From Streptosporangiales bacterium (GTDB taxonomy: Bacteria; Actinomycetota; Actinomycetes; Streptosporangiales; WHST01), in assembly GCA_050698355.1 (NCBI GenBank), contig JBOHBN010000006.1:13277-77276 (forward strand): a stretch of DNA of 64,000 nt, given 5' to 3'. Each line of letters begins with the position of its first letter. Position 1 is the first letter of the stretch. The position numbers and the translations under genes were made by a program. The notes beneath the pieces were generated by a model. It did not search any database. It saw only the letters and a program-made list of their open reading frames with translations, and was not told the DNA's origin. Of this stretch, positions 11,958 through 30,551 are shown piece by piece.

Positions 11958-12428
11958 GTGGCACGCGTTGACCACGGCATGCCACTTCAGGGAGAGTACG
12001 CACCCAGCCCGTCGGCGTGGGCTCGCGAGCACGCCGAACAGTTCGAGAACTCAGGTGGGACCGAAGCAACGACCCTGCGCGGCATGGCGATCGTGCTGCT
12101 GACTTCGGTCGGGGTCAAGACCGGCAAGCTGCGCAAGACGCCGCTGATGCGGGTCGAGCACGAGGGCCGGTACGCGATCGTCGCCTCGCTCGGCGGTGCG
12201 CCGAAGAACCCGGTGTGGTACCACAATGTGAAGGCCAATCCGCGCGTGGAACTCCAGGACGGGACGACAAAGCGGGACATGCTTGCCCGCGAGGTCACCG
12301 GCGAGGAGAAGGCGGTCTGGTGGGCCCGTGCCGTCGAGGCGTATCCCGACTATGCGGATTACCAGGAGAGGACGAGCCGGGAGATCCCGGTGTTCGTGCT
12401 CGAGCCGAAGGACGGGCGGGCGGTTTGA
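11958..12428 (+). CDS. Deazaflavin (F420H2)-dependent nitroreductase family protein (Ddn-like)
   Basis: [56 protein letters not shown] is the family signature. An alternative ATG start is at 11979. Confidence 0.85.
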
Positions 12429-14138: not shown

Positions 14139-14143
14139 GGCAC

Positions 14144-14917
14144 TTACCTCTCGACCAGTGCGAGCACCCGCGCGGGACTACCGGAGCCGCCGGCGATGGG
14201 TAGCGGTCCAGCGACGATGACCGCGCCGGTGGGCGGCAGCTGCGCGAGGTTCTGCAGCTGGGTCAAGCCGTACTTGCCGGCACCGTGCATCAGCGAGTGG
14301 CACGGAAACATCGGCTCGAAGCCGCCGGCGGCTCCTGCGTCGGTGCCGACGGTCTCGACACCCAACCCGATGACGGGTGACTCCTCGGCGACCCAGCGCG
14401 CACATTCCGGTGACAGTCCGGGCGTGTGCGAGCCGTTCTCGTCGGCGTTCAGGCACTCTTCCTGCGAGCCTGAACGGGCGTCCCAGCCCGTGCGGTACAG
14501 CAGCCAGCCGTCCTCGGGCAGCGGTCCGTGTTGTTCCTGCCAGTCCCTGACGTGCTCGATCTCGAGTAGGAAGTCCGGGTTATCGGCGACATGGTCGGAG
14601 AAGTCCAGCACCGCCGCCGGCGCGAGGAAACTCGTCACGGGCACCGACCCGATGTCGGGTCGGCCCCGCCCGGACACCCAGTGGTTCGGCGCGTCGAAGT
14701 GCGTGCCGGTGTGTTCCCCCGTACGGAAGTTGTTCCAGTACCACGCCGGCCCACGCTCGTCGTACCGGCTGATCTCCTCCAGCTCGAACCGCGCCGTCTG
14801 GCCGAACTCCGCCGGTAGCTGCAGGACGGGCGTGTCGGCGGTGAGCGGCGCGGTGAGGTCGACGACCTCCACCGAACCCGATGAGATGCTGATGACAAGG
14901 TCCTCCAGGACCGACAT
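14144..14917 (-). CDS. Cyclase-family metal hydrolase (kynurenine formamidase / isatin hydrolase family)
   Basis: GEHTGTHFDAPNHW matches the HxGTHxDxPxH cyclase-family motif. Confidence 0.85.
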   Translation of the reverse strand: MSVLEDLVISISSGSVEVVDLTAPLTADTPVLQLPAEFGQTARFELEEISRYDERGPAWYWNNFRTGEHTGTHFDAPNHWVSGRGRPDIGSVPVTSFLAPAAVLDFSDHVADNPDFLLEIEHVRDWQEQHGPLPEDGWLLYRTGWDARSGSQEECLNADENGSHTPGLSPECARWVAEESPVIGLGVETVGTDAGAAGGFEPMFPCHSLMHGAGKYGLTQLQNLAQLPPTGAVIVAGPLPIAGGSGSPARVLALVER

Positions 14918-14947: not shown

Positions 14948-16120
14948 CTACCTAGAACTTCTTAGCAGCTTTGTCGTGACCTCGAGCAGTATGTCGACGT
15001 CGGCGTGCGTGTTGTGACCATGGCACGCCGCGCGAATCCCACCGATACCCGCAACCCCGCGTACGGATACGTGGACTCCCGCGGAGTGAAGTTGATCGAG
15101 GAGCTCGGCCCGGGACTGCCGGCCACCCGGAGGGCTGAACGTGACGATGGCCGAAGGCGAGCCCACGGGCGTCAGAACGTCCTCGACTCCTGACTCCGCC
15201 AGTCCCTCACGCATCCGGTCGGCCAGCGCCCGTGCCGTGGCCTCGACGTGTCCGATGCCCGTTGTCAGCGTCTCGTCGATCGAAGCGGCCAGCCCGACGG
15301 CGCCGAGCCAGTTCGGAGTGCCGCTGATCTCGAACGCGCTGCCGTCCGTTCGTAGCTGTGCCATGTCGAACGCGTCACGCCCGGGGTCGGCGAGATAGAC
15401 GTTCCACCCGCTTCTCGGTGACTCGAGCGCGAAATACCCCTGGTAGGTCGGGCGCAGCTGTTCCCGCAATTCCTCGCTCATCCACAAGAAGCCGGCGCCG
15501 TACGGGTTGCGCAGCCACTTGTGCCCGCCGGCGACGTACGCGGCGATGCCGCTGTCGGCAGGGCGGCGCGCGATGACCCCAGCCTCCTGGATACCGTCCA
15601 CGACCACGTGCGCTCCGACCCGGTGTGCGGCCTCCGCCACGGCGTCCAGATCCACCGGCATCCCGGACACCTCCTGCACGGCGCTGAGCGCGACCACGCG
15701 AGTCCGCGCATCGAGCCTGGCAGCGAGATCGTCGAGGTGCACCGTGCCCCGCCGCGACGGCACCGGGCGAAGCTCGACGCCGCGAGCCGGAGCGTGCCGC
15801 CACACGGTCGTCAGGCCGAGGAATTCGCAGTCCGGGATCACGACGTTGTCCCCGGCTTCCAGTGCGAGCCCGCCTACGAGAATGCCGAGGCCGTGGGTGG
15901 TGCTGTCCACGAGAGTGACCGACTCGCATCCCACTTCCAGCAGTCGCGCGACGTGGGCGCGCGCGTCGTCGCACAGTGCGAGCCACTCAAGCGCCTGCGA
16001 CGTCGCCGATCCGTCCCCGGCGTCACCGAACCGGCTCGCGGCCGCCTGCACCGCCGACACGACGCCGGCGCTCGGCGGGCTCGCGCAGGCGTGGTCCAGG
16101 TAGTGCCAACTGGCTCCCAT
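14948..16120 (-). CDS. Aminotransferase class V-fold PLP enzyme
   Basis: 390 aa. YLDHACASP N-terminus. AAYVAGGHKWL (PLP lysine context). Confidence 0.85.
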   Translation of the reverse strand: MGASWHYLDHACASPPSAGVVSAVQAAASRFGDAGDGSATSQALEWLALCDDARAHVARLLEVGCESVTLVDSTTHGLGILVGGLALEAGDNVVIPDCEFLGLTTVWRHAPARGVELRPVPSRRGTVHLDDLAARLDARTRVVALSAVQEVSGMPVDLDAVAEAAHRVGAHVVVDGIQEAGVIARRPADSGIAAYVAGGHKWLRNPYGAGFLWMSEELREQLRPTYQGYFALESPRSGWNVYLADPGRDAFDMAQLRTDGSAFEISGTPNWLGAVGLAASIDETLTTGIGHVEATARALADRMREGLAESGVEDVLTPVGSPSAIVTFSPPGGRQSRAELLDQLHSAGVHVSVRGVAGIGGIRAACHGHNTHADVDILLEVTTKLLRSSR

Positions 16121-16122
16121 CG

Positions 16123-17586
16123 CTAGTCCGCGCTACCGCCTGCCGCGACGTCCTGCGCTTCGCTCTCCCTTTCGAGCACCTCGCGCTCTTCCTGGAAGGA
16201 ACGTTCGTCCATGTGCTCGCGGCCCCAACCGGTCAGCGTCGCGAAGAAGAAGACGAACATCAGCGCCCAGCAGTACACGACGTACGGCACCAGGTGGACC
16301 GGGTCGAAGCCGGTCAGGTTCGCATCGCGGACCGTCTTGCCGGCGAGCGAGAACGGGATCAGGACGGCCACGCTGTAGGGCACGAAACCGAGGATGGTCG
16401 TCGACGCCGCGTCGAGGATGTTCCCGCGCCGCCACGGCGCGATGCGAAAGGCGTGACCGAGCCGCCTGGCGTACGGCCCGAGCATCACCATCGTCGGAGT
16501 GCCGGCCGTGGTCAGGGCGTTGACGCCGAGCGTCAGCGTATAGATCGTCACTTCCGCGCTGCGCGGGCTGTGGGCGAGGCGGCGGGACCTCTGGATCAGC
16601 CAGTCGATGAGGCCGCCGGCCTGGAATGTGCCGATCATGCCCATCAAGAAGATGGTGAACACCGCGACGCCGACGAAACCGAGGATGCCGTCGATGATCA
16701 CTCCGCCGGCGGTGAAGCTGGAGCTGTCGACGGTGAGCAGGTCCGACCAGCTGAGCAGGCCCGTCACCAGGCCGAGAGCCATGCCGAAGGCGGTGCTGAC
16801 GAGCAGGGATGCGACGAAGTGCCACCGGCGGACCATGAGCACCATCAGCAGTGCTGGGGCGAGCAGCATGATGAGTCCCTGCGGGTCCGCGTCGACGGAG
16901 CCCCGTTCGGCACCGGCCGACCCGAAGATGCCGACGCCGACGTAGACGGCGAGCGTGACGACTCCGGCGACGGCGGCGTATTTCAACCGCGAGCGGACCA
17001 CCTTCGGCACGGTGGTGCCCTGGGAGTAGGCGGACACGATGGTCGTGTCGGAGACGGGCGCGAGGTTGTCACCGACGAAGGCGCCGCCGATGATCGCGCC
17101 GACGAGGAGCAGCGGGTCGGCCCCGATTCCGAAACCGGCGGGGAACAGTATCGGGGTCACCGCGAGGATCGTCCCGATCGAGGTTCCGGTGGAGATCGAA
17201 AGCACGGACGAGGCGAGGAACGTGACCAGCGGGATCCAGGCAGCGGAGAGGCCGATCGACGTCGCGGCCCAGACGAGCCCTTCGATCACGCCGCTTTGGT
17301 TCAGCATCTCGCCGAAAACTCCGGCGAGGAACCATGCGAGCAGGATGACCGCGAGCATCGGCGAGGCGATCCCCGCGATGAGGGCCTCGACGTACGCCTC
17401 CCGGCTCCGGGCGAGCAGAAGCCCGACGAGCAGGCCGAGCAGCACCATCGGCCAGAACGCTTTGGGCAGCGCGAGCCCGTTGAAGCCGAGTACGAGGATG
17501 CCGGCGAGCATCACCGCGAACGGGATGAAGAGCGCGGGTATCCCGCCCCGGAGTCGCAGTGGGGGCGTGGGCGTGGAACTCGTCAT
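16123..17586 (-). CDS. NhaC-family transporter
   Basis: 487-aa polytopic protein with NhaC-like GVFGEMLNQSGVIEGL and repeated G/A-rich TM segments. The next gene starts 2 nt after its stop. Confidence 0.8.
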   Translation of the reverse strand: MTSSTPTPPLRLRGGIPALFIPFAVMLAGILVLGFNGLALPKAFWPMVLLGLLVGLLLARSREAYVEALIAGIASPMLAVILLAWFLAGVFGEMLNQSGVIEGLVWAATSIGLSAAWIPLVTFLASSVLSISTGTSIGTILAVTPILFPAGFGIGADPLLLVGAIIGGAFVGDNLAPVSDTTIVSAYSQGTTVPKVVRSRLKYAAVAGVVTLAVYVGVGIFGSAGAERGSVDADPQGLIMLLAPALLMVLMVRRWHFVASLLVSTAFGMALGLVTGLLSWSDLLTVDSSSFTAGGVIIDGILGFVGVAVFTIFLMGMIGTFQAGGLIDWLIQRSRRLAHSPRSAEVTIYTLTLGVNALTTAGTPTMVMLGPYARRLGHAFRIAPWRRGNILDAASTTILGFVPYSVAVLIPFSLAGKTVRDANLTGFDPVHLVPYVVYCWALMFVFFFATLTGWGREHMDERSFQEEREVLERESEAQDVAAGGSAD

Positions 17587-17707
17587 GGTCGTTCAGCCCC
17601 CTAGACGAGGGATACCAGGAAGAGATGGACTTCTTCACTCTGACTAAATAAGGTCGACCGTAGAGCGCCCATCGTGCCGTGTCAATGACTGCCGTCGGGA
17701 GGACGCG

Positions 17708-18280
17708 ATGGCCGAAGCGAAGAACGCGGGGCAGGGCGACCATGTCGTGGAGATGCGCATCCGTGCGATCCGGACCGAGCGCGGAATCACGCTGACCGAG
17801 CTGGCGGACCGTACCGCTCTGTCCGCGGGCCTGCTCAGCCAGGTGGAACGGCGCCGGACCAACCCCAGCCTGGAAACGCTACGGCGCATCGCCCGCGTGC
17901 TCGAGGTGCCCATCTTCGATCTGTTCGACGCGGAGGCGAATCCGAACGCGGCGGTGGTGCGCCGTAGTCGGCGCATGCTGGTGCGTTCCCCGCATGGCGG
18001 CATCACCTACACGCGGGTGTCGCCTGGCACCGGTCGGCTCGAGGTGCTCGAAGGCACGCTGGAGCCGGGCGGTGCCTCCTCCGCCGACCCGTGGAGCCAC
18101 CCCTCCGAGGAATGCGTCGTGGTGCTGGAGGGACTGCTCGTCGTTGAGATCGGTGACGACACCTACGAGCTCGCGGCCGGTGACAGCTGCTACTTCGACT
18201 CCCGCCGGCTGCACCGCTACCGCAACCCGACCGACCGGCGGGTGTCCTTCCTCCTGACCGTGACGCCGCCCAGCTATTGA
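17708..18280 (+). CDS. XRE-family HTH regulator with C-terminal cupin domain
   Basis: IRAIRTERGITLTELADRTALSAGLLSQVERRRTNPSLETLRRIARVLEV HTH, plus cupin (GDSCYFDSRRLHRYRN). Confidence 0.85.
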   Translation: MAEAKNAGQGDHVVEMRIRAIRTERGITLTELADRTALSAGLLSQVERRRTNPSLETLRRIARVLEVPIFDLFDAEANPNAAVVRRSRRMLVRSPHGGITYTRVSPGTGRLEVLEGTLEPGGASSADPWSHPSEECVVVLEGLLVVEIGDDTYELAAGDSCYFDSRRLHRYRNPTDRRVSFLLTVTPPSY

Positions 18281-18335
18281 TCGTCTCGCAGGGGCGTATC
18301 CTTTTAGGCATAGTGAAACCGGCGAGAGGCGTGCG

Positions 18336-19487
18336 ATGGCCGATGTGACACCTGCGGCACTCGATACGCCCCAGCGGTTCCGGGAGCGGTTTCCGTCGCT
18401 GGCGGACACGGTGCACCTGGCGAGCTGCAGCCAGGGCGCAGCCTCGACCGACCTCCTCGGCGCCTCGTTCGAGTTCCAGGCCACGATGCGCGAACACGGG
18501 GCGCCGTGGGATCTCTGGGTCGGTGAGGTCGAGCGCGCCAGGTCGTTGTTCGCCGCCCTCATCGGAGCCGAACCCACCGAGATCGCCGTCGTGCCGTCTG
18601 CCTCTGTCGGTGCCTACCAGGTCGCGTCGACCAGGAGCTGGACGACGCCGCGAGTAGTTACCACCGACATGGAGTTCCCGTCGGTCGCCCAGGTCTGGCA
18701 CGCTCAGTGTCCCCGGGGCGCCGACATCGTCCACGCTACAGACCACGACGGCATCGTCGCCGCAGAGGACTACGCGGCGGTGCTGGACGAACGGGCCTCC
18801 CTCGTATCGATACCGCTGGCCTCCTACCGCAATGGTGCGCGGCTTCCGGTCGCCGACGTCGCCACCATGGCGCACGACGTCGGGGCCCATGTGTTCGTCG
18901 ACGCGTACCAGGCGGCTGGTGTGCTTCCGACGGATGTGCACCAGCTGGGCTGCGACTACCTCGTGTCGGGTTCGTTGAAGTACCTGCTCGGGCTGCCGGG
19001 CATCGCGTTCTTGTACGTGCGCGACGGTGTGGCCGATCAGGTCGCCCCACAGCTCACCGGATGGTTCGGACGCGTGGACCCGTTCGCCTTCGATCCGTAT
19101 GCCGTCGACTTTCCCGCCGCCGCGCGACGGTTCGAGACGGGGACGCCGTCGATCCCGTCCGCGTACGGCGCGGTCGCGGGCATGACGGCGCTGACCCGTG
19201 TCGACGCGAAGGCGGTCGACCTGTACGTGCGCGAGCTGGGCGCCGAGCTGCACGCGAACCTGCACCGGGTCGGTGAGCGCATCTGGTCGCCGGCGGACCC
19301 CGAGCTGCGCGGAGCGCAGGTCGCCGTCGTGGACGACAACCCGACCGACCTCGCCGCATACCTCGCGCAGCGAAGGATCGTGACCAGCCCCCGCGGTCAC
19401 GTCATACGGCTCTCGTTGCACTACTACAACGACAGTTCAGACGTCGACGCCGTGTGCGCGGCCATCGCCGACTACCGGCGTGGCTAG
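18336..19487 (+). CDS. Aminotransferase class V-fold PLP enzyme (second copy)
   Basis: 383 aa. HLASCSQGA N-terminal motif. CDYLVSGSLKYLLG (PLP lysine context). Confidence 0.85.
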   Translation: MADVTPAALDTPQRFRERFPSLADTVHLASCSQGAASTDLLGASFEFQATMREHGAPWDLWVGEVERARSLFAALIGAEPTEIAVVPSASVGAYQVASTRSWTTPRVVTTDMEFPSVAQVWHAQCPRGADIVHATDHDGIVAAEDYAAVLDERASLVSIPLASYRNGARLPVADVATMAHDVGAHVFVDAYQAAGVLPTDVHQLGCDYLVSGSLKYLLGLPGIAFLYVRDGVADQVAPQLTGWFGRVDPFAFDPYAVDFPAAARRFETGTPSIPSAYGAVAGMTALTRVDAKAVDLYVRELGAELHANLHRVGERIWSPADPELRGAQVAVVDDNPTDLAAYLAQRRIVTSPRGHVIRLSLHYYNDSSDVDAVCAAIADYRRG

Positions 19488-19724: not shown

Positions 19725-22088
19725 CTAGGTGGGGCGCCAGCGGTCGTGCCGGACGCCGGGGCCGCCCTCGCGTACCAGCTGGAGACGCGGCTTCGGCCCT
19801 TCCATACGCCCGGTCTGTGGCTTGCGCCGGCCGGACCGCCACGGCAGCGGCCAGCGGGCGCCGGGCCCGTCGTAGTCCTGCTCCACTGCGGCATGCAGCG
19901 TCCAGTTGGGGTCGTACAGGTGAGCCCTGGCCAGCGCACACAGATCTGCCCGCCCGGCGAGGATGAGGGAGTTGACGTCGTCGTAGGACGAGATCGCTCC
20001 GACCGCGACGGTGGCGACGCCCACCCGGTTGCGGATCGCGTCGGCGAACGGGGTCTGGAAGGACCTGCCGTATGCCGGCTGCTCGTCGGGCGTGACCTGC
20101 CCGGCTGACACGTCCACGGCATCCGCGCCCGCGTCGGCGAAAGCTTGGGCGATCAACACCGCGTCGTCGGCGTCGATGCCGCCCTCGACCCAATCGGTGG
20201 CCGAGATGCGCACGGTCATCGGCTTGCCCTGTGGCCACACCCCACGCATCGCGGCGAAGACCTCGAGCGGGTAGCGGAGCCGGTTCTGCAACGAGCCGCC
20301 GTACCGGTCGGTGCGGTGGTTGGTGACAGGAGAGATGAAGCTGGAGAGCAGGTAGCCGTGAGCGCAATGCAGCTCGACCAGGTCGAGGCCCGCACGTTCG
20401 GCGCGTCTCGTGGCGTCGACGAACTCCTGCTCGATCCCCTCCAAGTCCGCGCCCGTCAGCTCGCGCGGCACCTGGTTGACGCCCGGCTGGTACGCGAGCG
20501 GCGACGGCGCCACGACCTCCCAGTTGCCGTCAGGCAGCGGCTGGTCGATGCCCTCCCACATCCGTTTGGTGGAGCCCTTCCGGCCGGAGTGGCCGAGCTG
20601 CATCCCCACCTTGGCGTCAGTCTGTTCGTGTACGAAGTCGGTGATCCGGCGGAAGGCGGTCACGTGCTCGTCGGCGTACATCCCGCAGCAGCCAGGGGAT
20701 ATGCGCCCCTCGGGTGAGACGCAGACCATCTCGGTCATCACCAGACCGGCGCCGCCGAGTGCCTTACCGGCAAGGTGCGCGAAGTGGAAGTCGCCGGGTG
20801 TCCCGTCCTGGGCCACGTACATGTCCATCGCCGAGACGATGACGCGGTTGGCCAGCTCCAGCTCGCGCAGGCGGAACGGCTGGAACATCGGCGGGCGTAC
20901 GTCACCCGGCGCCATGCCACGGCGGTGCTCGTGCGCGGCGAACCAGGCGTCGGCGTGCTCGACGAACTCGTGGTCGCGGACGCGCAGGTTGTCGTAGGTG
21001 ACCCGGCGGCTGCGGGTGATGATGTTGAACGCGAACTGGGAGGCGTCCTGGTGCAGGTACTGGCCGAGGTTCTCGAACCACTCCAGGCTCGCCTGCGCTG
21101 CCCGCTGCGTGGACAGCACGACCGGCCTGCGCTCGGTCTCGTACGCGGTCAGCGCCGCCTCGACGCCGTCCTGCTCGTGCAGGCACGCCGCGAGTGCCAG
21201 TGCGTCCTCCATGGCGAGCTTGGTGCCCGAGCCGATGGAGAAGTGCGCGGTGTGCGCGGCATCCCCGAGCAGTACGACGTTCCCGTGCCGCCAGCACTCG
21301 TTTCGTACGGTTGTGAAGCTGATCCACTTGGAGTTGTTGGTGATCACCTTGTGACCGTCGAGGACGTCGCTGAACATCTCCCGCACGATCGCAACCGACT
21401 CCTCGTCCGACTCACCCGGCCGCAGGTCGGTGTCGGCGACCCGGTCGAAGCCCGCGGCGTGCCAGACGCCATCGTGCATCTCCACGATGAACGTGCTGCC
21501 GTGCGTGTCGTACGGGTACCCGTGGGTCTGCATGACACCGTACGGCGTCTGCCTGATGTAGAACTTGAACGCGTCGAACACCCGGTCGGTGCCGAGCCAC
21601 ATGTAGCGGCACTGCCGTACGTCCAGCGTGGGCTGGAAGGTGTCCGCGTAGCGGGCGCGGGTGGCGGAGTTGGCGCCGTCGCCGGCGACGACCAGATCGT
21701 GGCTCGCCGCGATCGTGGCCACGTCGGGTGCTTCGGTGAGAAAGTGCACGGTGATCCCGAGGTCGCGGCACCGCTCCTGCAGGATCTCGAGCAGCCGACG
21801 CCGGCTGATCGCGGCGAACCCGTGGCCGCCGCTGGTGATCACCTCGTCCTTGACGTGGACGTCGATGTCGTCCCAGTGGGCGAACTCGGCTCGCATCGCC
21901 GCGTAGACCGCCGGGTCGGCGTGCTCGATACCACCGAGGGTCTCGTCGGAGAAGACGACGCCGAAGCCGAACGTGTCGCAGGCGGCGTTGCGTTCCCACA
22001 CGGTGATCTCGTGCTGAGGTCCTAGCTGCTTGGCAAGCGCGGCGAAGTACAGGCCACCTGGCCCGCCACCGATCACGGCGATACGCAC
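19725..22088 (-). CDS. Bifunctional aryl-CoA hydroxylase/reductase: N-terminal FAD monooxygenase fused to C-terminal OYE-like NADH:flavin oxidoreductase (salicylyl-CoA 5-hydroxylase / 2-aminobenzoyl-CoA monooxygenase-reductase family)
   Basis: VRIAVIGGGPGGLYFA dinucleotide fold. GDAAHTAHFSIGSGTKLAMEDA. C-terminal OYE half (ELHCAHGYLLSSFISP). GTG at 22088 preferred because GGGAGG lies 6 nt upstream; the ORF is open to a TTG at 22139. Confidence 0.9.
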   Translation of the reverse strand: MRIAVIGGGPGGLYFAALAKQLGPQHEITVWERNAACDTFGFGVVFSDETLGGIEHADPAVYAAMRAEFAHWDDIDVHVKDEVITSGGHGFAAISRRRLLEILQERCRDLGITVHFLTEAPDVATIAASHDLVVAGDGANSATRARYADTFQPTLDVRQCRYMWLGTDRVFDAFKFYIRQTPYGVMQTHGYPYDTHGSTFIVEMHDGVWHAAGFDRVADTDLRPGESDEESVAIVREMFSDVLDGHKVITNNSKWISFTTVRNECWRHGNVVLLGDAAHTAHFSIGSGTKLAMEDALALAACLHEQDGVEAALTAYETERRPVVLSTQRAAQASLEWFENLGQYLHQDASQFAFNIITRSRRVTYDNLRVRDHEFVEHADAWFAAHEHRRGMAPGDVRPPMFQPFRLRELELANRVIVSAMDMYVAQDGTPGDFHFAHLAGKALGGAGLVMTEMVCVSPEGRISPGCCGMYADEHVTAFRRITDFVHEQTDAKVGMQLGHSGRKGSTKRMWEGIDQPLPDGNWEVVAPSPLAYQPGVNQVPRELTGADLEGIEQEFVDATRRAERAGLDLVELHCAHGYLLSSFISPVTNHRTDRYGGSLQNRLRYPLEVFAAMRGVWPQGKPMTVRISATDWVEGGIDADDAVLIAQAFADAGADAVDVSAGQVTPDEQPAYGRSFQTPFADAIRNRVGVATVAVGAISSYDDVNSLILAGRADLCALARAHLYDPNWTLHAAVEQDYDGPGARWPLPWRSGRRKPQTGRMEGPKPRLQLVREGGPGVRHDRWRPT

Positions 22089-22122
22089 AACGGCCCTCCC
22101 ACTTCCGGCATGATATGTTGTG

Positions 22123-22155
22123 TTTTCGACGGTCGTCAATGTGACGGTACGAAAA
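22123..22155. promoter_or_regulatory. Imperfect palindrome in the divergent promoter of the aryl-CoA cluster
   Basis: TTTTCGACGGTCGTCAATGTGACGGTACGAAAA: TTTTCG...CGAAAA arms and TCA/TGA core, in an AT-richer stretch between the start at 22088 and the start at 22192. Confidence 0.3.
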
Positions 22156-22191
22156 GGCGAGCTCGGTCGTCACGAGGGAGGTCGTTCGGCG

Positions 22192-23019
22192 ATGAGTCCG
22201 TTCCGGGCATCCGCGCCCTTCACCCAGGCCTGGAAGCACTTCCGCGTGGAGCGAGACGGCGGCATTGCGACCGTCACCTTCGACCGGCCGGACAAGCTGA
22301 ACGCGCTGACCTTCGAGGTGTACGCGGACCTGCGGGACTTCATCGCCGAGCTGCCGCACCGCGACGACACCCGTGTGGTCGTGCTGCGCGGCGAGGGCAG
22401 GGCGTTCTGCTCGGGCGGCGATGTGAACGAGATCATCGGCGCGACACTGCGGATGCGCCCGGATGAGCTGCTCTCGTTCACCCGGATGAGCGGCGAGGTC
22501 GTACGCGCGATGCGCGAGAGCCCGGTGCCGATCATCGCTGCTGTGCACGGCACAGCAGCGGGCGCCGGTTCGGTACTCGCGCTCGCCAGCGACTTTCGCA
22601 TCATGGCGCGCTCTGCGTCCTTTGCGTTCCTTTTCACTCGCGTCGGGCTGTCCGGTGCGGACATGGGCGCGGCCTACTTGCTCCCCCGGCTGGTCGGACT
22701 CGGCCGCGCCACCCAGCTGCTGATGCTGGGCGACTCGCTGCCGGCGGAACAGGCCGAACGCTGGGGTTTGGTGAGCGAACTCGTCGACGACGGCCGAGCC
22801 GATGAGACCGCGCGGGCGATCGCCGAGCGTCTCGCGCAAGGACCGTGGCAGGCGTACGCCCAGACCAAGGCGTTGCTCACCCGCGAGCTGGACATGAGCC
22901 TCCCCGGCGCGATCGAGCTCGAGGCGATGACCCAGGCGCTGCTGATGAAGGGGGAGGACTACCGCGAGTTCCATGCGGCGTTCACCGGCAAGCGGCAGCC
23001 CGAGTGGCAGGGCCGCTGA
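22192..23019 (+). CDS. Enoyl-CoA hydratase/isomerase family protein
   Basis: VTFDRPDKLNALT...VLRGEGRAFCSGGDV...AVHGTAAGAGSVLAL. RBS GGGAGG upstream of the ATG. Confidence 0.9.
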   Translation: MSPFRASAPFTQAWKHFRVERDGGIATVTFDRPDKLNALTFEVYADLRDFIAELPHRDDTRVVVLRGEGRAFCSGGDVNEIIGATLRMRPDELLSFTRMSGEVVRAMRESPVPIIAAVHGTAAGAGSVLALASDFRIMARSASFAFLFTRVGLSGADMGAAYLLPRLVGLGRATQLLMLGDSLPAEQAERWGLVSELVDDGRADETARAIAERLAQGPWQAYAQTKALLTRELDMSLPGAIELEAMTQALLMKGEDYREFHAAFTGKRQPEWQGR

Positions 23020-23021
23020 GA

Positions 23022-24167
23022 ATGGGCGAGCACCCGTGGGAGCTGAGCCCCGGACAGCGCGAGCTCATGGAATGGGTGCGTGAGGTCGCCCACACGACGT
23101 TGTGCCCGCTGGCCGAGGGTGGCGCGTCTGGGCACGTCAACCGCGAACTCGTACGGGCGCTGGGAGAACTCGGGCTGCTCGCGCGGCTGTTCCCCGGCGT
23201 ACGGGACGGATCGCCGTCCCGCGCTGCCGCCGCCCTGGAGCTGTGCCTGTTGCGTGAGTCGCTCGCCATGGTATCGACCGAGGCGGAGACTGCGCTGGCG
23301 TTGCAGGGGCTCGGCACGTACCCGATCCTGCAGTCGGGTTCGGACGCGCTGGTACGCCGGTGGGTGCCCGCGGTCGCGCGTGGCGAGGCCGTCGCCGCTT
23401 TCGCGTTGACCGAGCCGGAGGCGGGATCGGACGCTGCAGCGCTGTCGCTATCGGCGGACAGCGACGGTGACGGCTGGCGGTTGACCGGCGAGAAGCTGTG
23501 GATCTCCAACGCGCCGGACGCTGACTTCTACACGGTGTTCGCCCGGACGACACCCGACGCGGGCGCCCGTGGCGTGAGCGCATTCGTCCTGCCGGCCGAC
23601 CGGGCTGGGCTCTCCGGGGAGCGGCTCGAGATGCTCTCGCCGCACCCGATCGGGCGGCTGCGGCTCGACGCCGTGCCCGTACACGCCGATGAACTGCTCG
23701 GCGAGCAGGACCGGGGGTTCGCCGTCGCGATGCGCACGCTCGACCTGTTCCGGCCGAGCGTCGGCGCCTTCGCGGTGGGCATGGCACAGGCGGCACTCGA
23801 CTCCGCCGTAGCGCATGCCGACGCCCGTACTGCCTTCGGCGGGCCGCTGCGCCAGTTGCAGTCGGTGGCCCACACCCTTGCCGACATGGCTGCGCGCACC
23901 GAGGCTGCCCGACTCATGGTGTACCGCGCCGGTGCCGCGTACGACGCGGGACGTCCCGGAGTGGCGAGCACCTCGGCGATGGCCAAGCTGTACGCGACCG
24001 AGACCGCGCAGTTCGTGGTGGACGCCGCGATCCAGGTGCACGGCGCTCGGGCGCTCCAGCACGGTCACCTGCTCGAGCACCTCTACCGCGAGGTGCGGGC
24101 GCCGCGCATCTACGAGGGTGCCAGCGAGGTGCAGCGCTCCATCATCGCTCGCGGCCTCTACCGCTGA
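23022..24167 (+). CDS. Acyl-CoA dehydrogenase
   Basis: FALTEPEAGSDAAAL...KLWISNAP...YEGASEVQRSIIAR. Starts 2 nt after the hydratase stop. Confidence 0.9.
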   Translation: MGEHPWELSPGQRELMEWVREVAHTTLCPLAEGGASGHVNRELVRALGELGLLARLFPGVRDGSPSRAAAALELCLLRESLAMVSTEAETALALQGLGTYPILQSGSDALVRRWVPAVARGEAVAAFALTEPEAGSDAAALSLSADSDGDGWRLTGEKLWISNAPDADFYTVFARTTPDAGARGVSAFVLPADRAGLSGERLEMLSPHPIGRLRLDAVPVHADELLGEQDRGFAVAMRTLDLFRPSVGAFAVGMAQAALDSAVAHADARTAFGGPLRQLQSVAHTLADMAARTEAARLMVYRAGAAYDAGRPGVASTSAMAKLYATETAQFVVDAAIQVHGARALQHGHLLEHLYREVRAPRIYEGASEVQRSIIARGLYR

Positions 24168-24175
24168 CCCTGAGC

Positions 24176-24207
24176 CGGAGGCCGTACTCAGCCGAGTACG
24201 GCCTCCG
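24176..24207. terminator. GC-rich hairpin between convergent genes (candidate bidirectional terminator)
   Basis: CGGAGGCCGTACTC-AGCC-GAGTACGGCCTCCG: 14-bp perfect stem, 4-nt loop. Overlaps the last codons of the minus-strand ligase gene. Confidence 0.55.
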
Positions 24208-25810
24208 CACGCAACCGGAACCGCTGCAGCTTGCCAGTGCTGGTCCGGGGCAGCTCGAATAGGAACACCACCCCACGCGGATACTTGTACGGGGCGATAC
24301 GCGTCTTGGTGAAGTCCTGCAGCTCCTTGATCTTCACGTCGTCACCGGGTACCTCCGGCCGCAGGACGACGAACGCGGTGACCAGCTGCCCGCGTGCCTC
24401 ATCCGGCACGCCGACGACCGCGCACTCGGTGACGTCCGGATGGGCGAGCAGCGCCTCTTCCACTTCGGGCGCGGCAATGTTGTACCCGGAGGAGATGATC
24501 ATGTCGTCGCTGCGGGCCTGGTACCAGAAGTAGCCGTCCTGGTCCTGCATGTACGTGTCGCCGGTGATGTTCCAGCCGTTCTGCGCGTACACCTCCTGCC
24601 GGTCGCCCGCCAGATAGCGGCACCCGGTAGGGCCCTTGACCGCAAGCCGACCCACCTCACCGGGCGGAAGCGGATTGCCGGCGGTGTCGACCACGGCGGC
24701 GGTGTACCCGGGAACGGGCTTGCCGGTCGACCCGGGACGGATGCCGTCGTCGGCCGCGGAGATGAATATGTGCAGCATCTCGGTGGACCCGATGCCGTCG
24801 ATGATCCGTACGCCTGTGGCGTCGTGGAACTCGCGCCACGTCTCCGCGGGCAGATGTTCACCGGCCGAGACACAGCGGCGCAGCGTGACCAGTCTTTCCG
24901 GCCACCCCGCGCGGAGCATGGCCCGGTACGCGGTGGGCGCGGTGAAGCAGATCGTGACCCCATGCGCGGCGATGTGGTCGGCCAACTCGTCCGCCGACGC
25001 CTTCTCGATCAGCAGGGACGAGGCGCCGACGCGCAGCGGGAACACCACCAGTCCACCGAGGCCGAAGGTGAAGGCCAGCGGTGGCGTGCCGGTGAACACG
25101 TCGTCCGGTCGCGGTCGGAGCACGTGCTTGGAGAACGTGTCTGCGTTGGCGAGCACATCACGGTGGAAGTGCATCGTCGCCTTCGGGCGTCCCGTCGTGC
25201 CCGAGGTGAACGCGAGCAGGGCGACGTCGTCGGCTGCGGTGTCGACGGCTTCGAACGCGGCATCCAGGTGCTCGGCGCGCCGGGTGAGGTCGTCGGCGCC
25301 ATCACCGCCGTACGTGACGACCCGCGCCGTACCGAGGTCTGCCGCCAACAGATCGGCGATGAAGCGGTGATCGCAGAGTGCGATGTCGACCTGGGCAATC
25401 TCGCGGACTGTGCTGAGCTCGCCGGGACGGAGCAACGGCATCGTCGTGACGACGACGCCGCCCGCCCTGAGCACCGCGATCCAGCAGGCCACGAGCCACG
25501 GATTGTTCGGTCCCCGCAACAGCACCCGGTTGCCCGGTACCAGACCCAGCTCACCGACGAGCACCCGCGCGATCCGGTTGGATACGCGCAGCAGCTCCGC
25601 ATAGCTCCACCGCTCACCGGCCGGCGACAGCACGCACGGGCGATCACCGCCGTGCTCGGTAATGGTGCGCTCCAGCAGTTCGGCCGCGCAGTTCAGCCGG
25701 TCCGGATAACGCACGTCCGGCAGGTCGACGATGAGCTCGGGCCAGGTAGCGGGGGCTGGGAGGTGGTCGCGGCAGAACGTGTCGACGTGCGCCGATCGGG
25801 TCAGCTGCAT
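24188..25810 (-). CDS. Aryl-CoA ligase (AMP-binding; benzoate / 2-aminobenzoate-CoA ligase family)
   Basis: FTSGTTGRPKATMH AMP-binding motif. GDTYMQDQDGYFWYQARSDDMIISSGYNI. C-terminal PRTSTGKLQRF. Confidence 0.9.
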   Translation of the reverse strand: MQLTRSAHVDTFCRDHLPAPATWPELIVDLPDVRYPDRLNCAAELLERTITEHGGDRPCVLSPAGERWSYAELLRVSNRIARVLVGELGLVPGNRVLLRGPNNPWLVACWIAVLRAGGVVVTTMPLLRPGELSTVREIAQVDIALCDHRFIADLLAADLGTARVVTYGGDGADDLTRRAEHLDAAFEAVDTAADDVALLAFTSGTTGRPKATMHFHRDVLANADTFSKHVLRPRPDDVFTGTPPLAFTFGLGGLVVFPLRVGASSLLIEKASADELADHIAAHGVTICFTAPTAYRAMLRAGWPERLVTLRRCVSAGEHLPAETWREFHDATGVRIIDGIGSTEMLHIFISAADDGIRPGSTGKPVPGYTAAVVDTAGNPLPPGEVGRLAVKGPTGCRYLAGDRQEVYAQNGWNITGDTYMQDQDGYFWYQARSDDMIISSGYNIAAPEVEEALLAHPDVTECAVVGVPDEARGQLVTAFVVLRPEVPGDDVKIKELQDFTKTRIAPYKYPRGVVFLFELPRTSTGKLQRFRLRAEAVLG

Positions 25811-25924
25811 GAGGTCCTCCGAGAGCAGTCTGCTGCCTTCAGTATTCCTTGTGAGTGACGGCAGTCAAGGGCACGCAACATAGCGTCAGTGTGACGGGCG
25901 TCGATATCCCGCTATCCTGCTGGC

Positions 25925-26758
25925 GTGACGACGATCGAGGAGGTCGGTGCGGCACGCGCGTCGCAACCGCGTGCGCTGATCGTCACCGTGTACGGGTTGT
26001 ACGCACGCGAGGAGGGCGGCTGGATCAGCATCGCCGCGTTGATCCGGTTGCTCGCCGAGCTGGGCGTGGACGAGCCCGCCGTACGCTCCTCCATCTCCCG
26101 GCTGAAGCGGCGCAGCATCCTCGAGGCCCAGCGGGTGGACGGGGCCGCCGGGTACGGCCTGTCCCGCAGGGCCCGCGACATCCTCGACGAGGGTGACCGG
26201 CGGATCTTCCAGCGGCCACGCGCCCACCTCGGTGACGGCTGGCTGCTCGCCGTGTTCAGTGTGCCCGAGTCGCTGCGACGTAAGCGGCACACGCTGCGCT
26301 CACGGCTGGCGTGGCTCGGGTTCGGCGCCGTCGCGGCCGGAGTGTGGATCGCGCCGGCGCACCTGGACGCCGAGACACGCGACGTGCTCGAGCGCTACGA
26401 GCTGGCCGACTACGTCGACCTGTTCCATGCCGACTACCGCGCGTTCGGTGACGTACGCGAGAAGGTACGAGAGTGGTGGGACCTGGACGAGCTGCAACGG
26501 CTGTACGACGAGTTCCTCGCTGTGTACGCGCCAGTCCTCGGCAAGTGGAAACGTCGCCGCGCGCCCGACGACGCTCAGGCGTTCCACGACTACGTGCGCG
26601 CGCTCACTGCGTGGCGGCAGCTGCCGTTCCTCGATCCGGGCCTCGCCGGCGAGGTGTTGCCCAGCGACTGGCACGGGACCCGGGCGGGCGACCTCTTCTT
26701 CGCTCTGCGTACGCGGTTGGCCGAACCGGCGCACCGGTACGTCGTCGGCGTCCGCTGA
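25925..26758 (+). CDS. PaaX-family transcriptional repressor
   Basis: PRALIVTVYGLYAREEGGWISIAALIRLLAELGVDEPAVRSSISRLKRR...LRSRLAWLGFGAVAAGVWIAP. Confidence 0.85.
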   Translation: MTTIEEVGAARASQPRALIVTVYGLYAREEGGWISIAALIRLLAELGVDEPAVRSSISRLKRRSILEAQRVDGAAGYGLSRRARDILDEGDRRIFQRPRAHLGDGWLLAVFSVPESLRRKRHTLRSRLAWLGFGAVAAGVWIAPAHLDAETRDVLERYELADYVDLFHADYRAFGDVREKVREWWDLDELQRLYDEFLAVYAPVLGKWKRRRAPDDAQAFHDYVRALTAWRQLPFLDPGLAGEVLPSDWHGTRAGDLFFALRTRLAEPAHRYVVGVR

Positions 26759-26767
26759 TCCTCCCGG

Positions 26768-27166
26768 TCAGCCGGACACGACCGCGAACCCCTGCAGCTC
26801 GACCAGCGCCTCGATGTCCCACAGCCGACGTACGCCGACCGCGGCCATCGCTGGGTAGTCGGCACCGACGAGCCGGCGCCACACCGCACCGATGTCACGG
26901 GCGTGTGCCTTGTAGTCGTCCATGTCGACGATGTAGACGCTGAGGCTTGCGAGCTGATCCGGTCGGCCCCCCGCGGCGCGTAGGGTTTCGAGCAGATTCC
27001 CGAGAGCTTGCTCGAACTGTTCAACGACTCCTGCGCCGACGATCCGCCCATCGGCGTCGAGTGCGGTCTGGCCGGCGAGATGGACGGTGCGCCCGTCGGC
27101 GACCACGGCGTGCGAGAAGCCGCTCGGCCGGCCCAGGCTCTCCGGGTTGACGCGTTCGAGGCTCAC
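26768..27166 (-). CDS. RidA/YjgF-family enamine/imine deaminase
   Basis: GFSHAVVADGRTVHLAGQTALDADGRIVG...VEQFEQALGNLLETLRAAG. GTG start at 27164-27166 chosen; upstream in-frame starts are possible (ORF open to 27352). Confidence 0.8.
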   Translation of the reverse strand: MSLERVNPESLGRPSGFSHAVVADGRTVHLAGQTALDADGRIVGAGVVEQFEQALGNLLETLRAAGGRPDQLASLSVYIVDMDDYKAHARDIGAVWRRLVGADYPAMAAVGVRRLWDIEALVELQGFAVVSG

Positions 27167-27341: not shown

Positions 27342-27656
27342 ATGACCGACATGGAGCTCTACGACCTGCGCGTCACGGTCGAGCGCATCGACGGCGAGTC
27401 GGTGTGTGGTCTGCGTGTCGGCGACTACTTCAAGCTGGTGAACAGCTCGCAGCTGCGGCTGCCGCCCGATCGCCACTTCTGCGTCTTCGCCCTGCAAGCG
27501 GTACTACCGCTGCTGCCGGCGAAGCAACGCCAACTGCCAGAGAGTGACTGGCTGGAACGGGACTCGCTGGTGTGCTGCCCGGACCCGGAGGAGCGGGTGG
27601 TGATGCGCATCGAGCGCACACGCCGGCGGCAGCTGGACTCGGCAGACCTGACATGA
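27342..27656 (+). CDS. TIGR04076-like small Cys-containing protein
   Basis: MELYDLRVTVERIDGESVCGLRVGDYF...RHFCVFALQAVLPLLPAKQR...LVCCPDPEERVVMRIERT pattern. Stop overlaps the next ATG (ATGA at 27653-27656). Confidence 0.6.
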   Translation: MTDMELYDLRVTVERIDGESVCGLRVGDYFKLVNSSQLRLPPDRHFCVFALQAVLPLLPAKQRQLPESDWLERDSLVCCPDPEERVVMRIERTRRRQLDSADLT

Positions 27657-28660
27657 CCGAGATCGGCCTCGGCGTCCAGTCCGACAAGCGTGCTGCCGAC
27701 TACGCGCGGCTCGCCGTGCTGGCGGAGAACGCCGGTTTCGATGTGGTCAGCGTGTTCGGTGATCTCATGTTCCAGCCGCCTGTCTTCCCGCTGCTGGAGA
27801 TGGCGCGGACGACGTCGCGGGTGCGGCTGGGTGCGGCGTGCTGGAACCCGTACACCATGCACCCGTACGAGATCGCCGGGCAGCTTGCTGCGGTCGACCA
27901 GGTATCAGGCGGCCGCGCGTACCTCGGGCTGGCGCGGGGTAGCTGGTTGGACGCGATCGGCGTGGCCCAGCCGGGGCCGGTGACTCATCTGTGCGAGGCG
28001 GTGCGCGTGATCCGGGCGCTGTTGCGCGGAGACGACGCGGGTGTCGAGGGTGAGGTGTTCCGGCTCGCGCCCGGTGCCCGGCTGCGCTACCCGCTGCCGG
28101 CGCGCGTACCGCCGCTGCTGTTGGGTGCGTGGGGGCCGCGGGTGGCGGCACTGGCCGGTGAGGTCGCCGACGAGGTGAAGATCGGCGGCACCGCCAATCC
28201 CGCCATGGTCGAGGTCATGCGCGAACGGATCGTGCCCGGACGGCGGGCTGCCGGCCGGCCGGACGACGCGGTCGGCGTCGTCGTCGGCGCGGTAACTGTC
28301 GTCGACGACGATGGTGCTGCCGCCAGGGCGCGGGCGCGCACCGAGGTGGCCATGTACCTGGCTGTGGTCGCAGAGCTTGACCCGACGGTGCAGTTGCCGT
28401 CCGGGTTGCTCGGCATGGTGCGCAAGCACTTGGACGTGGGGGACCACGAGCGCGCGGGTGCGTGTATCCCCGACGATGTGCTCGACCTGTTCGCGTTCGC
28501 AGGCACGCCGGAACAGGTGGCCGCACGGGCGCAGGAACTGGTTGATGCCGGTGCACGCCGGATTGAGTTCGGCACCCCGCATGGCCTGAGCGACGCAAGC
28601 GGGATCGAGCTGCTCGGCCATGCGGTACTCCCGTCGCTCGACCTCGGGGCGCGACGATGA
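27653..28660 (+). CDS. LLM-class F420/flavin-dependent oxidoreductase (methylene-H4MPT reductase-like)
   Basis: RLAVLAENAGFDVVSVFGDL...RAYLGLARGSWLD...AFAGTPEQVAARAQELVDAGARRIEFG. Confidence 0.85.
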   Translation: MTEIGLGVQSDKRAADYARLAVLAENAGFDVVSVFGDLMFQPPVFPLLEMARTTSRVRLGAACWNPYTMHPYEIAGQLAAVDQVSGGRAYLGLARGSWLDAIGVAQPGPVTHLCEAVRVIRALLRGDDAGVEGEVFRLAPGARLRYPLPARVPPLLLGAWGPRVAALAGEVADEVKIGGTANPAMVEVMRERIVPGRRAAGRPDDAVGVVVGAVTVVDDDGAAARARARTEVAMYLAVVAELDPTVQLPSGLLGMVRKHLDVGDHERAGACIPDDVLDLFAFAGTPEQVAARAQELVDAGARRIEFGTPHGLSDASGIELLGHAVLPSLDLGARR

Positions 28661-28703
28661 CTGCGCTCACCGTCCGGCTCGTACGCGAGGAGGCGTGTGC
28701 CAG

Positions 28704-29480
28704 ATGAGCCAACACACCGATGGGCAGCTCACGTACGGGAGCTACCTGCGTCTGGATGACCTGCTGTCGTGCCAATCTCCGCTCACCGACGCGCACGACG
28801 AGCTGCTGTTCGTCACTATCCACCAGGTGTACGAGCTGTGGTTCGCGCAGATCCTGCACGAGGCGGCGTTGCTGCAGGGCCGCCTCGAGTCCGGGGACAG
28901 CGCGGGAGCCCTGCACACAGCACGACGAATCGCGAAGATACTCAAGACCATCGTCGGGCAGCTCGACATCCTGGAGACGATGACGCCGCGGCAGTTCGCG
29001 TCCTTCCGCCCCGAGTTGGGGTCGGCGAGCGGTTTCCAGTCCAACCAGTTCAGGGAGATCGAAGCGGTACTCGGCCGTCGTGACTTCACGCCGTCGGCCA
29101 TGGACGCGCGCCTGGCTGCGGCGACCAGTCGCCGGTCGGTGTTCGATTCGCTGCTCCGCTACCTGGTGACCGCGGGCTTTCACATCCCTGCGGACGCGCT
29201 GGACCGTGACCCGCGGCAGACCTGGCACGCGAATCAACAGGTGCGGGCTGTGCTTGCCGAGGTGTATGCGGACGAGCGGAACCCCGCCGCCGAGATCTGC
29301 GAGGCGTTGGTCGACGTCGACGAGGGTGTGCAGGAGTGGCGGTACCGGCACGTGATGATGGTGGAGCGGATCATCGGCGCCAGGCTCGGCACCGGTGGGT
29401 CGACTGGGGTCGACTACCTGCGCAAGACGCTGTTCCGCCCAGCGTTCCCCGAGCTGTGGGAGGTGCGAAGTGTCCTGTGA
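28704..29480 (+). CDS. kynA: Tryptophan 2,3-dioxygenase
   Basis: LTYGSYLRLDDLLSCQSP...HDELLFVTIHQVYELWFAQILHE...FRPELGSASGFQSNQFREIE...WRYRHVMMVERIIG...GTGGSTGVDYLRKT. Confidence 0.9.
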   Translation: MSQHTDGQLTYGSYLRLDDLLSCQSPLTDAHDELLFVTIHQVYELWFAQILHEAALLQGRLESGDSAGALHTARRIAKILKTIVGQLDILETMTPRQFASFRPELGSASGFQSNQFREIEAVLGRRDFTPSAMDARLAAATSRRSVFDSLLRYLVTAGFHIPADALDRDPRQTWHANQQVRAVLAEVYADERNPAAEICEALVDVDEGVQEWRYRHVMMVERIIGARLGTGGSTGVDYLRKTLFRPAFPELWEVRSVL

Positions 29481-29543
29481 CTCCCGCGTCGACACCGAGG
29501 CCCTCACGTCACGTATGCCGTTGCCCCGAGCTGGAGAGTCACA

Positions 29544-30551
29544 ATGAGGTTGGATACCTTCCCGCGCGAGAAACTGCTGTTCGGCCCGTCGCCTGTCCAC
29601 CCACTTCACCGGTTGTCTGAGCATCTTGGCGGGGCACAGGTATGGGCCAAGCGCGAGGACTGCAACAGCGGATTGGCTTTCGGGGGCAACAAGACCCGCA
29701 AGCTGGAGTACCTTGTCGCTGACGCACGAAGTCAGGGATGCGACACGCTGGTATCGATTGGCGGGGTGCAATCGAATCACACCAGGCAGGTCGCCGCAGT
29801 TGCCGCGAACGCCGGTATGCGGGCCGTGCTGGTCCAGGAAAGCTGGGTGAACTGGCCGGACGCCGTTTACGACCGAGTGGGTAATATCCAGCTCAGCCGC
29901 ATCCTCGGTGCGGACGTACGGCTGGTGCAGGCCGAGTTCGGTATCGGCGTCAAGGATAGCTGGGAGCGGGTGCTTGCCGAGGTCGAGCAAGCGGGGGGCA
30001 AGCCGTACGCGATCCCCGCGGGGGCATCGGACCATCCGTTGGGCGGATTGGGGTTCGCGCGCTGGGCAGGCGAGGTCGAAGAGCAAGAACACGATCTCGG
30101 CCTGTTCTTCGACACGATCGTGGTGTGCTCGGTCACCGGCAGCACACAGGCGGGCATGGTCGCCGGATTCGCCGCCCAGACGCGTCCGCGGCGGGTCATC
30201 GGCATCGACGCTTCCGCCAAGCCGAACGAAACCCGCGATCAGGTTGCGCGGATCGCGCACCGTACCGCCGAGCTCATCGATGCGGGCCGAGACCTTGGCG
30301 ACGCGGAGATCGAGCTCGATGAACGCTTCCATGCCGGCGCCTACGGCATCCCCGATGCGCGGACGCTCGAAGCCATTCGTACCGCGGCCAGGCTGGACGG
30401 CATGGTCACCGACCCGGTGTACGAGGGCAAGTCAATGGCCGGGCTGATCGACCTGGTCGCCAACCGCGAGGTCGACGCCGACTCGACCGTGCTGTACGCC
30501 CATCTCGGCGGGCAACCCGCCTTGAGTGGCTACAGCGCGGTGGTCCATTGA
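29544..30551 (+). CDS. acdS: 1-aminocyclopropane-1-carboxylate deaminase
   Basis: [23 protein letters not shown] (PLP Lys). [30 protein letters not shown] and YAHLGG retain the Glu/Leu pair that distinguishes AcdS from D-cysteine desulfhydrase. Confidence 0.9.

Follow-up and report, generated by a model that had tools for sequence, protein, structure and literature searches.

The window examined here is a 64-kb stretch of DNA (G+C ~69%) from a Streptosporangiales bacterium, and the system in question is a gene cluster at 19.7-27.2 kb that probably encodes an aerobic pathway for anthranilate (2-aminobenzoate) through coenzyme A (CoA) thioesters. The gene map (Table 1) is based on third-position G+C, Pfam and NCBIfam matches, and direct reading of the gene junctions. 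The central gene encodes a single polypeptide, referred to here as the fusion enzyme, in which an N-terminal flavin adenine dinucleotide (FAD) monooxygenase (Pfam FAD_binding_3) is joined to a C-terminal old yellow enzyme (OYE)/flavin mononucleotide (FMN) reductase (Oxidored_FMN). It is accompanied by an enoyl-CoA hydratase, an acyl-CoA dehydrogenase, an aryl-CoA ligase, a PaaX-family repressor and a Rid-family protein. The original prediction, which was made from the sequence alone, had described a bifunctional fusion enzyme of ~790 aa, a hydratase and a dehydrogenase 2 nt apart and divergent from it, and a convergent ligase with a PaaX-family repressor; all of these are present as described, the 2-nt spacing is exact, and Table 1 gives refined coordinates. 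It had also named a RidA deaminase. The Rid-family gene is real, but its product is not an archetypal RidA, since it scores below the TIGR00004 cutoff (44.1 vs 106.25) and has Met in place of a functional Arg (see below).

Gene content of the cluster and of related loci

Two known types of cluster serve as references. The Azoarcus type is represented by the annotated clusters of Paracoccus denitrificans, Ralstonia solanacearum and Deinococcus psychrotolerans, which we used as proxies for the Azoarcus evansii abm clusters; their layout is fusion-SDR-MarR-hydratase-dehydrogenase-ligase (SDR, short-chain dehydrogenase/reductase), with a hotdog thioesterase and a Rid gene. The second type, hydroxylate-and-cleave, has the layout PaaX-Rid-FAH-cupin-thioesterase-ligase-fusion (FAH, fumarylacetoacetate hydrolase), and is found in pAL1 of Arthrobacter sp. 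Rue61a (ARUE_113p00210-00240, with the regulators MeqR1/MeqR2), two Rhodococcus plasmids, Tsukamurella and Streptantibioticus. With the Azoarcus type the window shares the ligase, the FAD/OYE fusion, a hydratase of the PRK08258 family, the dehydrogenase and the Rid protein (46-60% identity to the proxies). It differs from that type in having a PaaX-type regulator, with no MarR match in the window, in lacking both the SDR/3-hydroxyacyl-CoA dehydrogenase and the hotdog thioesterase, and in the arrangement of its genes, which form divergent and convergent units rather than one operon. With the clusters of Arthrobacter, Rhodococcus and Tsukamurella it shares the PaaX-type regulator and the box TGACGNNCGTCA, but these pAL1-type clusters have an acyl-CoA thioesterase, a small cupin and an FAH-family hydrolase where the window has the hydratase and the dehydrogenase. 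Genes for a thioesterase, a cupin dioxygenase and an FAH have no match anywhere in the 64-kb window. The cluster is basically a combination of enzymes of the Azoarcus type with a regulator of the hydroxylate-and-cleave type.

The fusion enzyme is 100% identical to a protein in a Streptosporangiales metagenome-assembled genome, and relatives of 71-81% identity are common across Actinomycetota. It is 62% identical to the pAL1 enzyme and 53% identical to the proteobacterial/Deinococcus-type counterparts, and it retains the motifs for cofactor binding and catalysis in intact form (GGGPGGLY, HFSIGSGTKLAMEDA and ELHCAHGYLLSSF). The ligase is 55-60% identical to its counterparts in Azoarcus-type clusters, 60.5% identical to a Ralstonia protein annotated as 2-aminobenzoate-CoA ligase, and 59.5% identical to Arthrobacter ARUE_113p00220, for which assays have verified anthranilate-CoA ligase activity (PMC3534580). 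Its best PDB match is the anthranilate-CoA ligase 4wv3 (E 2.5e-86); it falls below the cutoff of the benzoate-CoA ligase family (343 vs 375), and no model specific for anthranilate-CoA ligase was matched in NCBIfam. The hydratase scores 397.5 on NF006107 (cutoff 330), a model on which the Paracoccus and Ralstonia cluster hydratases, each 46% identical to it, score 487 and 502. The dehydrogenase is 47-48% identical to those of the proteobacterial clusters, and 60-78% identical to those found in the related loci described below. The PaaX protein, 46% identical to both PaaX-type regulators of pAL1, has all three PaaX Pfam domains and scores below the phenylacetate PaaX equivalog TIGR02277 (166.7 vs 264.55), and is therefore a member of the family but not the phenylacetate regulator. 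The Rid protein is 52% identical to that of pAL1.

To survey the neighborhood of the fusion gene, we used one genome per species, which gave 80 loci with fusion enzymes 71-79% identical to that of the window, mostly from Actinomycetota with some from Dormibacterota. Neighbors were counted by mapping reference proteins onto the loci, with the 41 loci of at least 20 kb also treated as a subset. The most prevalent neighbor is the Rid gene (62 of 80 loci; 37 of the 41 long loci), which also occurs in the proteobacterial, Deinococcus and pAL1-type clusters. It is followed by the genes for the ligase (57 of 80; 32 of 41), PaaX (49; 29), the dehydrogenase (42; 23), the hydratase (40; 23) and the SDR (34; 17), the last of which also accompanies the clusters of Paracoccus, Ralstonia and Deinococcus. 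The hydroxylate-and-cleave genes are neighbors at a single locus (1 of 80; 1 of 41). The divergent arrangement of dehydrogenase-hydratase and fusion gene is also seen in the nearest relatives (loci L006-L012, L018 and L022).

In a neighbor-joining tree of fusion enzymes, the clade containing the window's protein (81 sequences) is recovered in 95 of 100 bootstraps; the hydroxylate-and-cleave clade is separate (96 of 100), and the proteobacterial pair forms a third group (100 of 100). All clades have the same cofactor and catalytic motifs in both domains, and a search for motifs that would distinguish hydroxylase-only from hydroxylase/reductase enzymes found none. One member of the window's clade, from Nonomuraea maritima (L071), has the thioesterase, cupin and FAH set as its neighbors, and this mixed state implies at least one exchange of the two downstream modules.

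Table 1. Genes and promoter regions of the cluster and selected genes nearby (window coordinates).
Feature	Position	Strand	Basis or remark
Fusion enzyme, FAD monooxygenase/OYE (FMN) reductase, 787 aa	19725-22088	-	GTG start; Pfam, NCBIfam
Divergent promoter region, fusion gene/hydratase, 104 bp	22089-22192		box 22127-22138 cGACGGTCGTCA
Enoyl-CoA hydratase, crotonase family, PRK08258 family	22193-23019	+	NF006107
Acyl-CoA dehydrogenase	23022-24167	+	begins 2 nt past hydratase stop; four ACAD Pfam domains
AMP-forming aryl-CoA ligase, predicted anthranilate-CoA ligase	24188-25810	-	convergent on dehydrogenase; homology to assayed ligase
Divergent promoter region, ligase/PaaX, 114 bp	25811-25924		boxes 25856-25867 TGACGGCAGTCA, 25892-25903 TGACGGGCGTCG
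PaaX-family repressor	25925-26758	+	Pfam PaaX, PaaX_M, PaaX_C
Rid (YjgF/RidA) family protein, non-archetypal	26768-27166	-	convergent; Pfam Ribonuc_L-PSP
Isatin hydrolase homologue (cyclase family)	14147-14917	-	PDB matches; metal motif
Thiamine-diphosphate enzyme	12501-14138	-	three TPP Pfam domains; 5 nt downstream of isatin hydrolase
Tryptophan 2,3-dioxygenase family gene	28620/28704-29480	+	~1.5 kb downstream of cluster

The PaaX-type repressor and its candidate operator

Both divergent promoters of the cluster contain a conserved candidate operator, TGACGNNCGTCA. The PaaX-type repressor MeqR2 of pAL1 reportedly binds TGACGNNCGTcA and responds to anthraniloyl-CoA; the motif was tested here by direct sequence search. 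The window has five matches with at most one mismatch, a number not above chance, and three of the five are located in the two promoter regions of the cluster (Table 1). Across 88 loci, 92 of 179 matches fall within the 5.6% of sequence that lies upstream of cluster genes (binomial P ~1e-65), as do 19 of the 22 exact copies, and the boxes stand at stereotyped distances from the start codons. In many related loci the box precedes the fusion gene by ~35-80 bp, and the same motif recurs in related loci between the ligase and PaaX genes. On pAL1, an exact box is found upstream of one PaaX gene, and a copy with one mismatch in the divergent region between Rid and FAH, upstream of the catabolic operon.

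Given this comparative enrichment, we consider the predicted PaaX operator to be a candidate control element. The repressor would bind the boxes in the fusion/hydratase and ligase/PaaX promoters, and would presumably be released by 2-aminobenzoyl-CoA. A palindrome had been predicted at 22123-22155. Its 6-nt outer arms (TTTTCG/CGAAAA) and the 12-nt box that they enclose are indeed there, but the region as one long (33-nt) palindrome was rejected, because the repeat finder detected no inverted repeat of 8 nt or longer in it.

Probable assignment of the cluster to anthranilate

We assign a probability of about 75% to the reading that the cluster encodes an aerobic CoA-thioester pathway for anthranilate. 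This reading is favored because gene content and orthology agree with the Azoarcus-type clusters, because the thioesterase, cupin and FAH of the other variant are absent from the 64 kb, because the fusion enzyme belongs to a clade separate from the hydroxylate-and-cleave clade, and because the ligase resembles a verified anthranilate-CoA ligase and the operator motif is common to pAL1. So understood, the cluster is an ordinary, well-preserved actinobacterial version, regulated by PaaX, of the known anthranilate-CoA pathway of the Azoarcus type. The preference of the original prediction for a 2-aminobenzoyl-CoA pathway over salicylyl-CoA hydroxylation is upheld by gene content, by the missing genes of the rival, by phylogeny and by the links to anthranilate. 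Its statement that the Azoarcus clusters include genes of the beta-oxidation type is also borne out by a review, according to which enzymes of beta-oxidation carry out the further degradation of the Azoarcus product (PMC4539516).

The pathway would start with the ligase, which by homology to the verified enzyme is predicted to make 2-aminobenzoyl-CoA. By analogy with the Azoarcus enzyme, the FAD domain of the fusion enzyme would hydroxylate C5 of this thioester, and the OYE/FMN domain would reduce the ring to give the non-aromatic 2-amino-5-oxocyclohex-1-ene-1-carbonyl-CoA. The Rid-family protein may help to hydrolyze the enamine/imine, releasing ammonia, a role proposed from its conservation and not from its catalytic residues. 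Finally, the hydratase and the dehydrogenase would open and oxidize the alicyclic CoA ester towards central metabolism. Anthranilate-grown Arthrobacter cells contain a C7H8O4-CoA ester, which fits a deaminated dioxocyclohexane-carboxyl-CoA (PMC3534580).

Several points weigh against this assignment. What the ligase activates and what the fusion enzyme produces are predictions from sequence comparison. The catalytic motifs are the same in the window's clade and the hydroxylate-and-cleave clade, so that sequence cannot tell whether the ring is reduced, and the tree itself was built with proxies in place of authentic AbmA or SdgC sequences. Roughly half of the related loci lack a hydratase or dehydrogenase within 10 kb. 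The SDR/3-hydroxyacyl-CoA dehydrogenase that accompanies other clusters has neither an orthologue nor a remnant in the whole 64-kb window, where the best SDR match (54197-54928) is only 31% identical; the genome may encode it outside the window. The last point concerns the Rid protein, in which Met replaces Arg105 of E. coli RidA, a residue needed for canonical imino-acid deaminase activity. When aligned with E. coli RidA, each of the cluster-associated Rid proteins has Met at this position.

Two further observations concern these genes. A search next to the Rid gene for the remains of an SDR gene found none; 27342-27656 is instead a small open reading frame (ORF) that precedes a gene of the luciferase-like monooxygenase (LLM) family. 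The motif YPAMA is common to the Rid proteins linked to these fusion enzymes (the window, L001-L004 and L006), which suggests a distinct Rid subfamily that may act on a CoA-bound enamine or imine.

A different fate of the same substrate is proposed by the hydroxylate-and-cleave pathway, in which the fusion enzyme would yield 5-hydroxyanthraniloyl-CoA. Hydrolysis and ring cleavage of this product would fall to a thioesterase, a cupin dioxygenase and an FAH whose genes lie outside the window, and the hydratase and dehydrogenase would have some other role. No other variant is as well documented in Actinobacteria, it uses the same set of PaaX, Rid and ligase genes together with the same operator, its neighborhood occurs in a member of the window's own clade (Nonomuraea L071), and the catalytic motifs do not separate the two clades. 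We nonetheless consider it unlikely, since its three marker genes are absent from the window and present in one of the 80 loci of the clade, as against 40-42 with the hydratase or dehydrogenase, since the clades split at 95-96% bootstrap support, and since the hydratase family is specific to Azoarcus-type clusters.

The substrate itself is at issue in the other two alternatives. A salicylate pathway of the Sdg type would convert salicylyl-CoA to gentisyl-CoA; the genes for gentisate cleavage would lie elsewhere, and the hydratase and dehydrogenase would be bystanders. SdgC of Streptomyces sp. WA46 has the two-domain FAD monooxygenase/OYE architecture and the NCBIfam name in common with the window's protein. 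The name in question, "bifunctional salicylyl-CoA 5-hydroxylase/oxidoreductase", belongs to NF006101, which the window's protein passes (1238.7 bits; cutoff 1078), and an SdgC-annotated homologue was reported to be salicylate-induced in Massilia (PMC13215587). However, NF006101 is passed equally by the enzymes of pAL1 (1228.5 bits) and Paracoccus (1293.8 bits), so its name does not discriminate, and the JGI/KEGG label for the same proteins is "anthraniloyl-CoA monooxygenase". Arthrobacter sp. Rue61a, which carries pAL1, degrades anthranilate, and does so only via CoA thioesters, but does not grow on salicylate or gentisate, and assays identified its ligases as anthranilate-CoA ligases (PMC3534580). 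In contrast to the sdg cluster, the window has no genes for the cleavage of gentisate: neither a gentisate dioxygenase/cupin nor an FAH or thioesterase is found in the 64 kb. (A maleylpyruvate-isomerase-family match at 8178-8798, considered as a sign of a gentisate route, was rejected as a generic match to a DinB-type domain.) The context points instead to an amino-substituted substrate: the Rid gene is kept in most of the 80 loci, an isatin hydrolase pair (see below) is repeatedly adjacent and even lies inside the Deinococcus operon, and hydratase and fusion gene have one divergent promoter with an operator box. A role in salicylate degradation is in our view quite improbable. The least probable of the alternatives is that the cluster acts on some other aryl acid, ortho-substituted or related, such as a substituted anthranilate or a further breakdown product of indoles or quinolones. 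The sub-cutoff score of the ligase on the benzoate-CoA ligase family and its lack of a match to an anthranilate-specific model would allow this, as would nearby oxygenases with no assigned role (an HpaB-family enzyme with its flavin reductase, and an LLM-family enzyme). It is opposed by the closeness of the ligase to an assayed anthranilate-CoA ligase, by the operator shared with the pAL1 regulon, and by the isatin hydrolase, which yields a direct precursor of anthranilate.

Probable supply of anthranilate, and neighboring genes

The cyclase-family gene upstream of the cluster (Table 1) had been predicted to belong to a kynurenine-formamidase/isatin-hydrolase family, and only the second half of that description holds. 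Its product matches the isatin hydrolases 5nmp (E 3e-87), 5nnb, 5nna and 4j0n of the PDB over the full length (E 3e-87 to 1e-70), and contains the metal motif HTGTHFDAPNH (HxG[T/A]HxDxPxH), which by itself is also found in kynurenine formamidases (PMC6117287). Kynurenine formamidase was rejected, as no chain so named is among the seven PDB matches at E <= 1e-3. The full-length similarity and the metal motif are common to the window's protein and the isatin hydrolases of Labrenzia (Roseibium) aggregata and Ralstonia solanacearum. The gene contexts differ: the window's gene is translationally coupled to that of a thiamine enzyme and stands beside the anthranilate-CoA cluster, whereas the Roseibium gene is part of a cluster of Rieske-oxygenase, ligase, thiolase and SDR genes from which the thiamine enzyme is absent.

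The two genes form a recurrent pair. The isatin hydrolase is directly upstream of the thiamine enzyme in 53 of the 55 metagenome loci with room for it, and anthranilate-CoA genes are near the thiamine enzyme in 7 of 31 metagenome loci of at least 9 kb; clustering of the neighbors in the metagenome loci revealed no further frequent partner of the pair. The pair is present at 7001-9414 of L170, at 5315-7773 of L169, and in L089-L168. Among the 80 genome loci the pair adjoins the fusion gene in six. Amycolatopsis alkalitolerans reproduces the whole 12.5-27 kb layout of the window, and in D. psychrotolerans the genes form a single co-directional operon, fusion-SDR-MarR-hydratase-dehydrogenase-ligase-hydrolase-thiamine enzyme-Rid. 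Similarity searches found no close characterized relative of the thiamine enzyme, and no paper naming an isatinate decarboxylase was found in the literature searched. In Cupriavidus SHE, indole is reported to be degraded via isatin, isatic acid and anthranilate, and a 2-aminobenzoyl-CoA cluster to be vital for the breakdown of both anthranilate and indole (PMC6221969). We consider that the pair at 12.5-14.9 kb probably supplies anthranilate, at least in part, from isatin. Whether the thiamine enzyme is the missing enzyme that turns isatinate (2-aminophenylglyoxylate) towards anthranilate, making the pair a two-gene module that plugs isatin/indole breakdown into the pathway, is in our estimate evenly balanced.

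The case for a kynurenine route to anthranilate is weak. The tryptophan 2,3-dioxygenase family gene is located 1.5 kb downstream, as predicted, but the proposal that it supplies anthranilate is poorly supported: it scores below the NCBIfam cutoff (264.4 vs 390.7) and adjoins the fusion gene in only one of the 80 genome loci. The motif search of the window found no PaaX box upstream of its putative operon, and a canonical kynureninase is absent from the window (model score 50 vs cutoff 246.4). The possible operon (27342-30551, plus strand) is divergent from the Rid gene and has an odd combination of genes. It begins with a 104-aa ORF without Pfam match, followed by an F420/LLM-family oxidoreductase with an overlapping start at 27654, and contains, besides the dioxygenase gene, one for a protein that passes the equivalog for 1-aminocyclopropane-1-carboxylate (ACC) deaminase (550.6 vs 392). 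An LLM gene and small genes of the TIGR04076 family are also near the fusion gene in Rhodococcus NJ-530 (L002), where a tryptophan dioxygenase gene stands beside the hydroxylate-and-cleave cluster.

Other sources of anthranilate are seen next to clusters of the hydroxylate-and-cleave type. pAL1 carries genes for the degradation of quinaldine, which produces anthranilate (PMC3534580). On a plasmid of Rhodococcus erythropolis BG43 (L088), such a cluster adjoins aqdC1 (13785-14621), which encodes a dioxygenase of the Pseudomonas quinolone signal, and quorum-signal degradation is therefore linked to the anthranilate-CoA pathway.

The remaining neighbors flank the isatin hydrolase pair or lie further away. 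Between the transporter gene and the fusion gene, at 17648-19487 (plus strand), are genes for a helix-turn-helix-cupin regulator (PuuR-like) and a class-V pyridoxal phosphate (PLP) enzyme that is neither a clear cysteine desulfurase nor a kynureninase; both are found again together with the isatin hydrolase pair in L055, L092 and L113 (55-63% identity). Directly upstream of the isatin hydrolase and on the same strand (14948-17592, minus) are a second class-V PLP enzyme and an NhaC-family transporter, which may belong to the same transcription unit. Just beyond the pair, at 9497-12428, the minus strand has genes for a two-component oxygenase of the HpaB family, which scores below the 4-hydroxyphenylacetate hydroxylase cutoffs, and for a flavin reductase, together with a small cupin-like ORF; the plus strand encodes an F420H2-dependent quinone reductase. 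All of these could act on indole, isatin or anthranilate. Unrelated genes of the window (796-4595 and 36951-37568) encode an ANTAR-GAF-STAS regulator, a radical SAM protein with an HMPTM zinc ribbon, and an Imm1 immunity protein.

Nothing here would surprise a specialist in aromatic catabolism, and the most interesting by-product is the conserved module of isatin hydrolase and thiamine enzyme. The genomic context ties a widespread actinobacterial clade of fusion enzymes to anthranilate, and the salicylyl-CoA name used by NCBI is thus probably misleading for this clade. The conserved core of hydratase, dehydrogenase and Rid protein, with the SDR in other genomes, provides defined candidates for the steps after dearomatization. 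The isatin hydrolase/thiamine enzyme pair, for its part, points to a possible undescribed step from isatin to anthranilate, which bears on the turnover of indole and auxin in soil.

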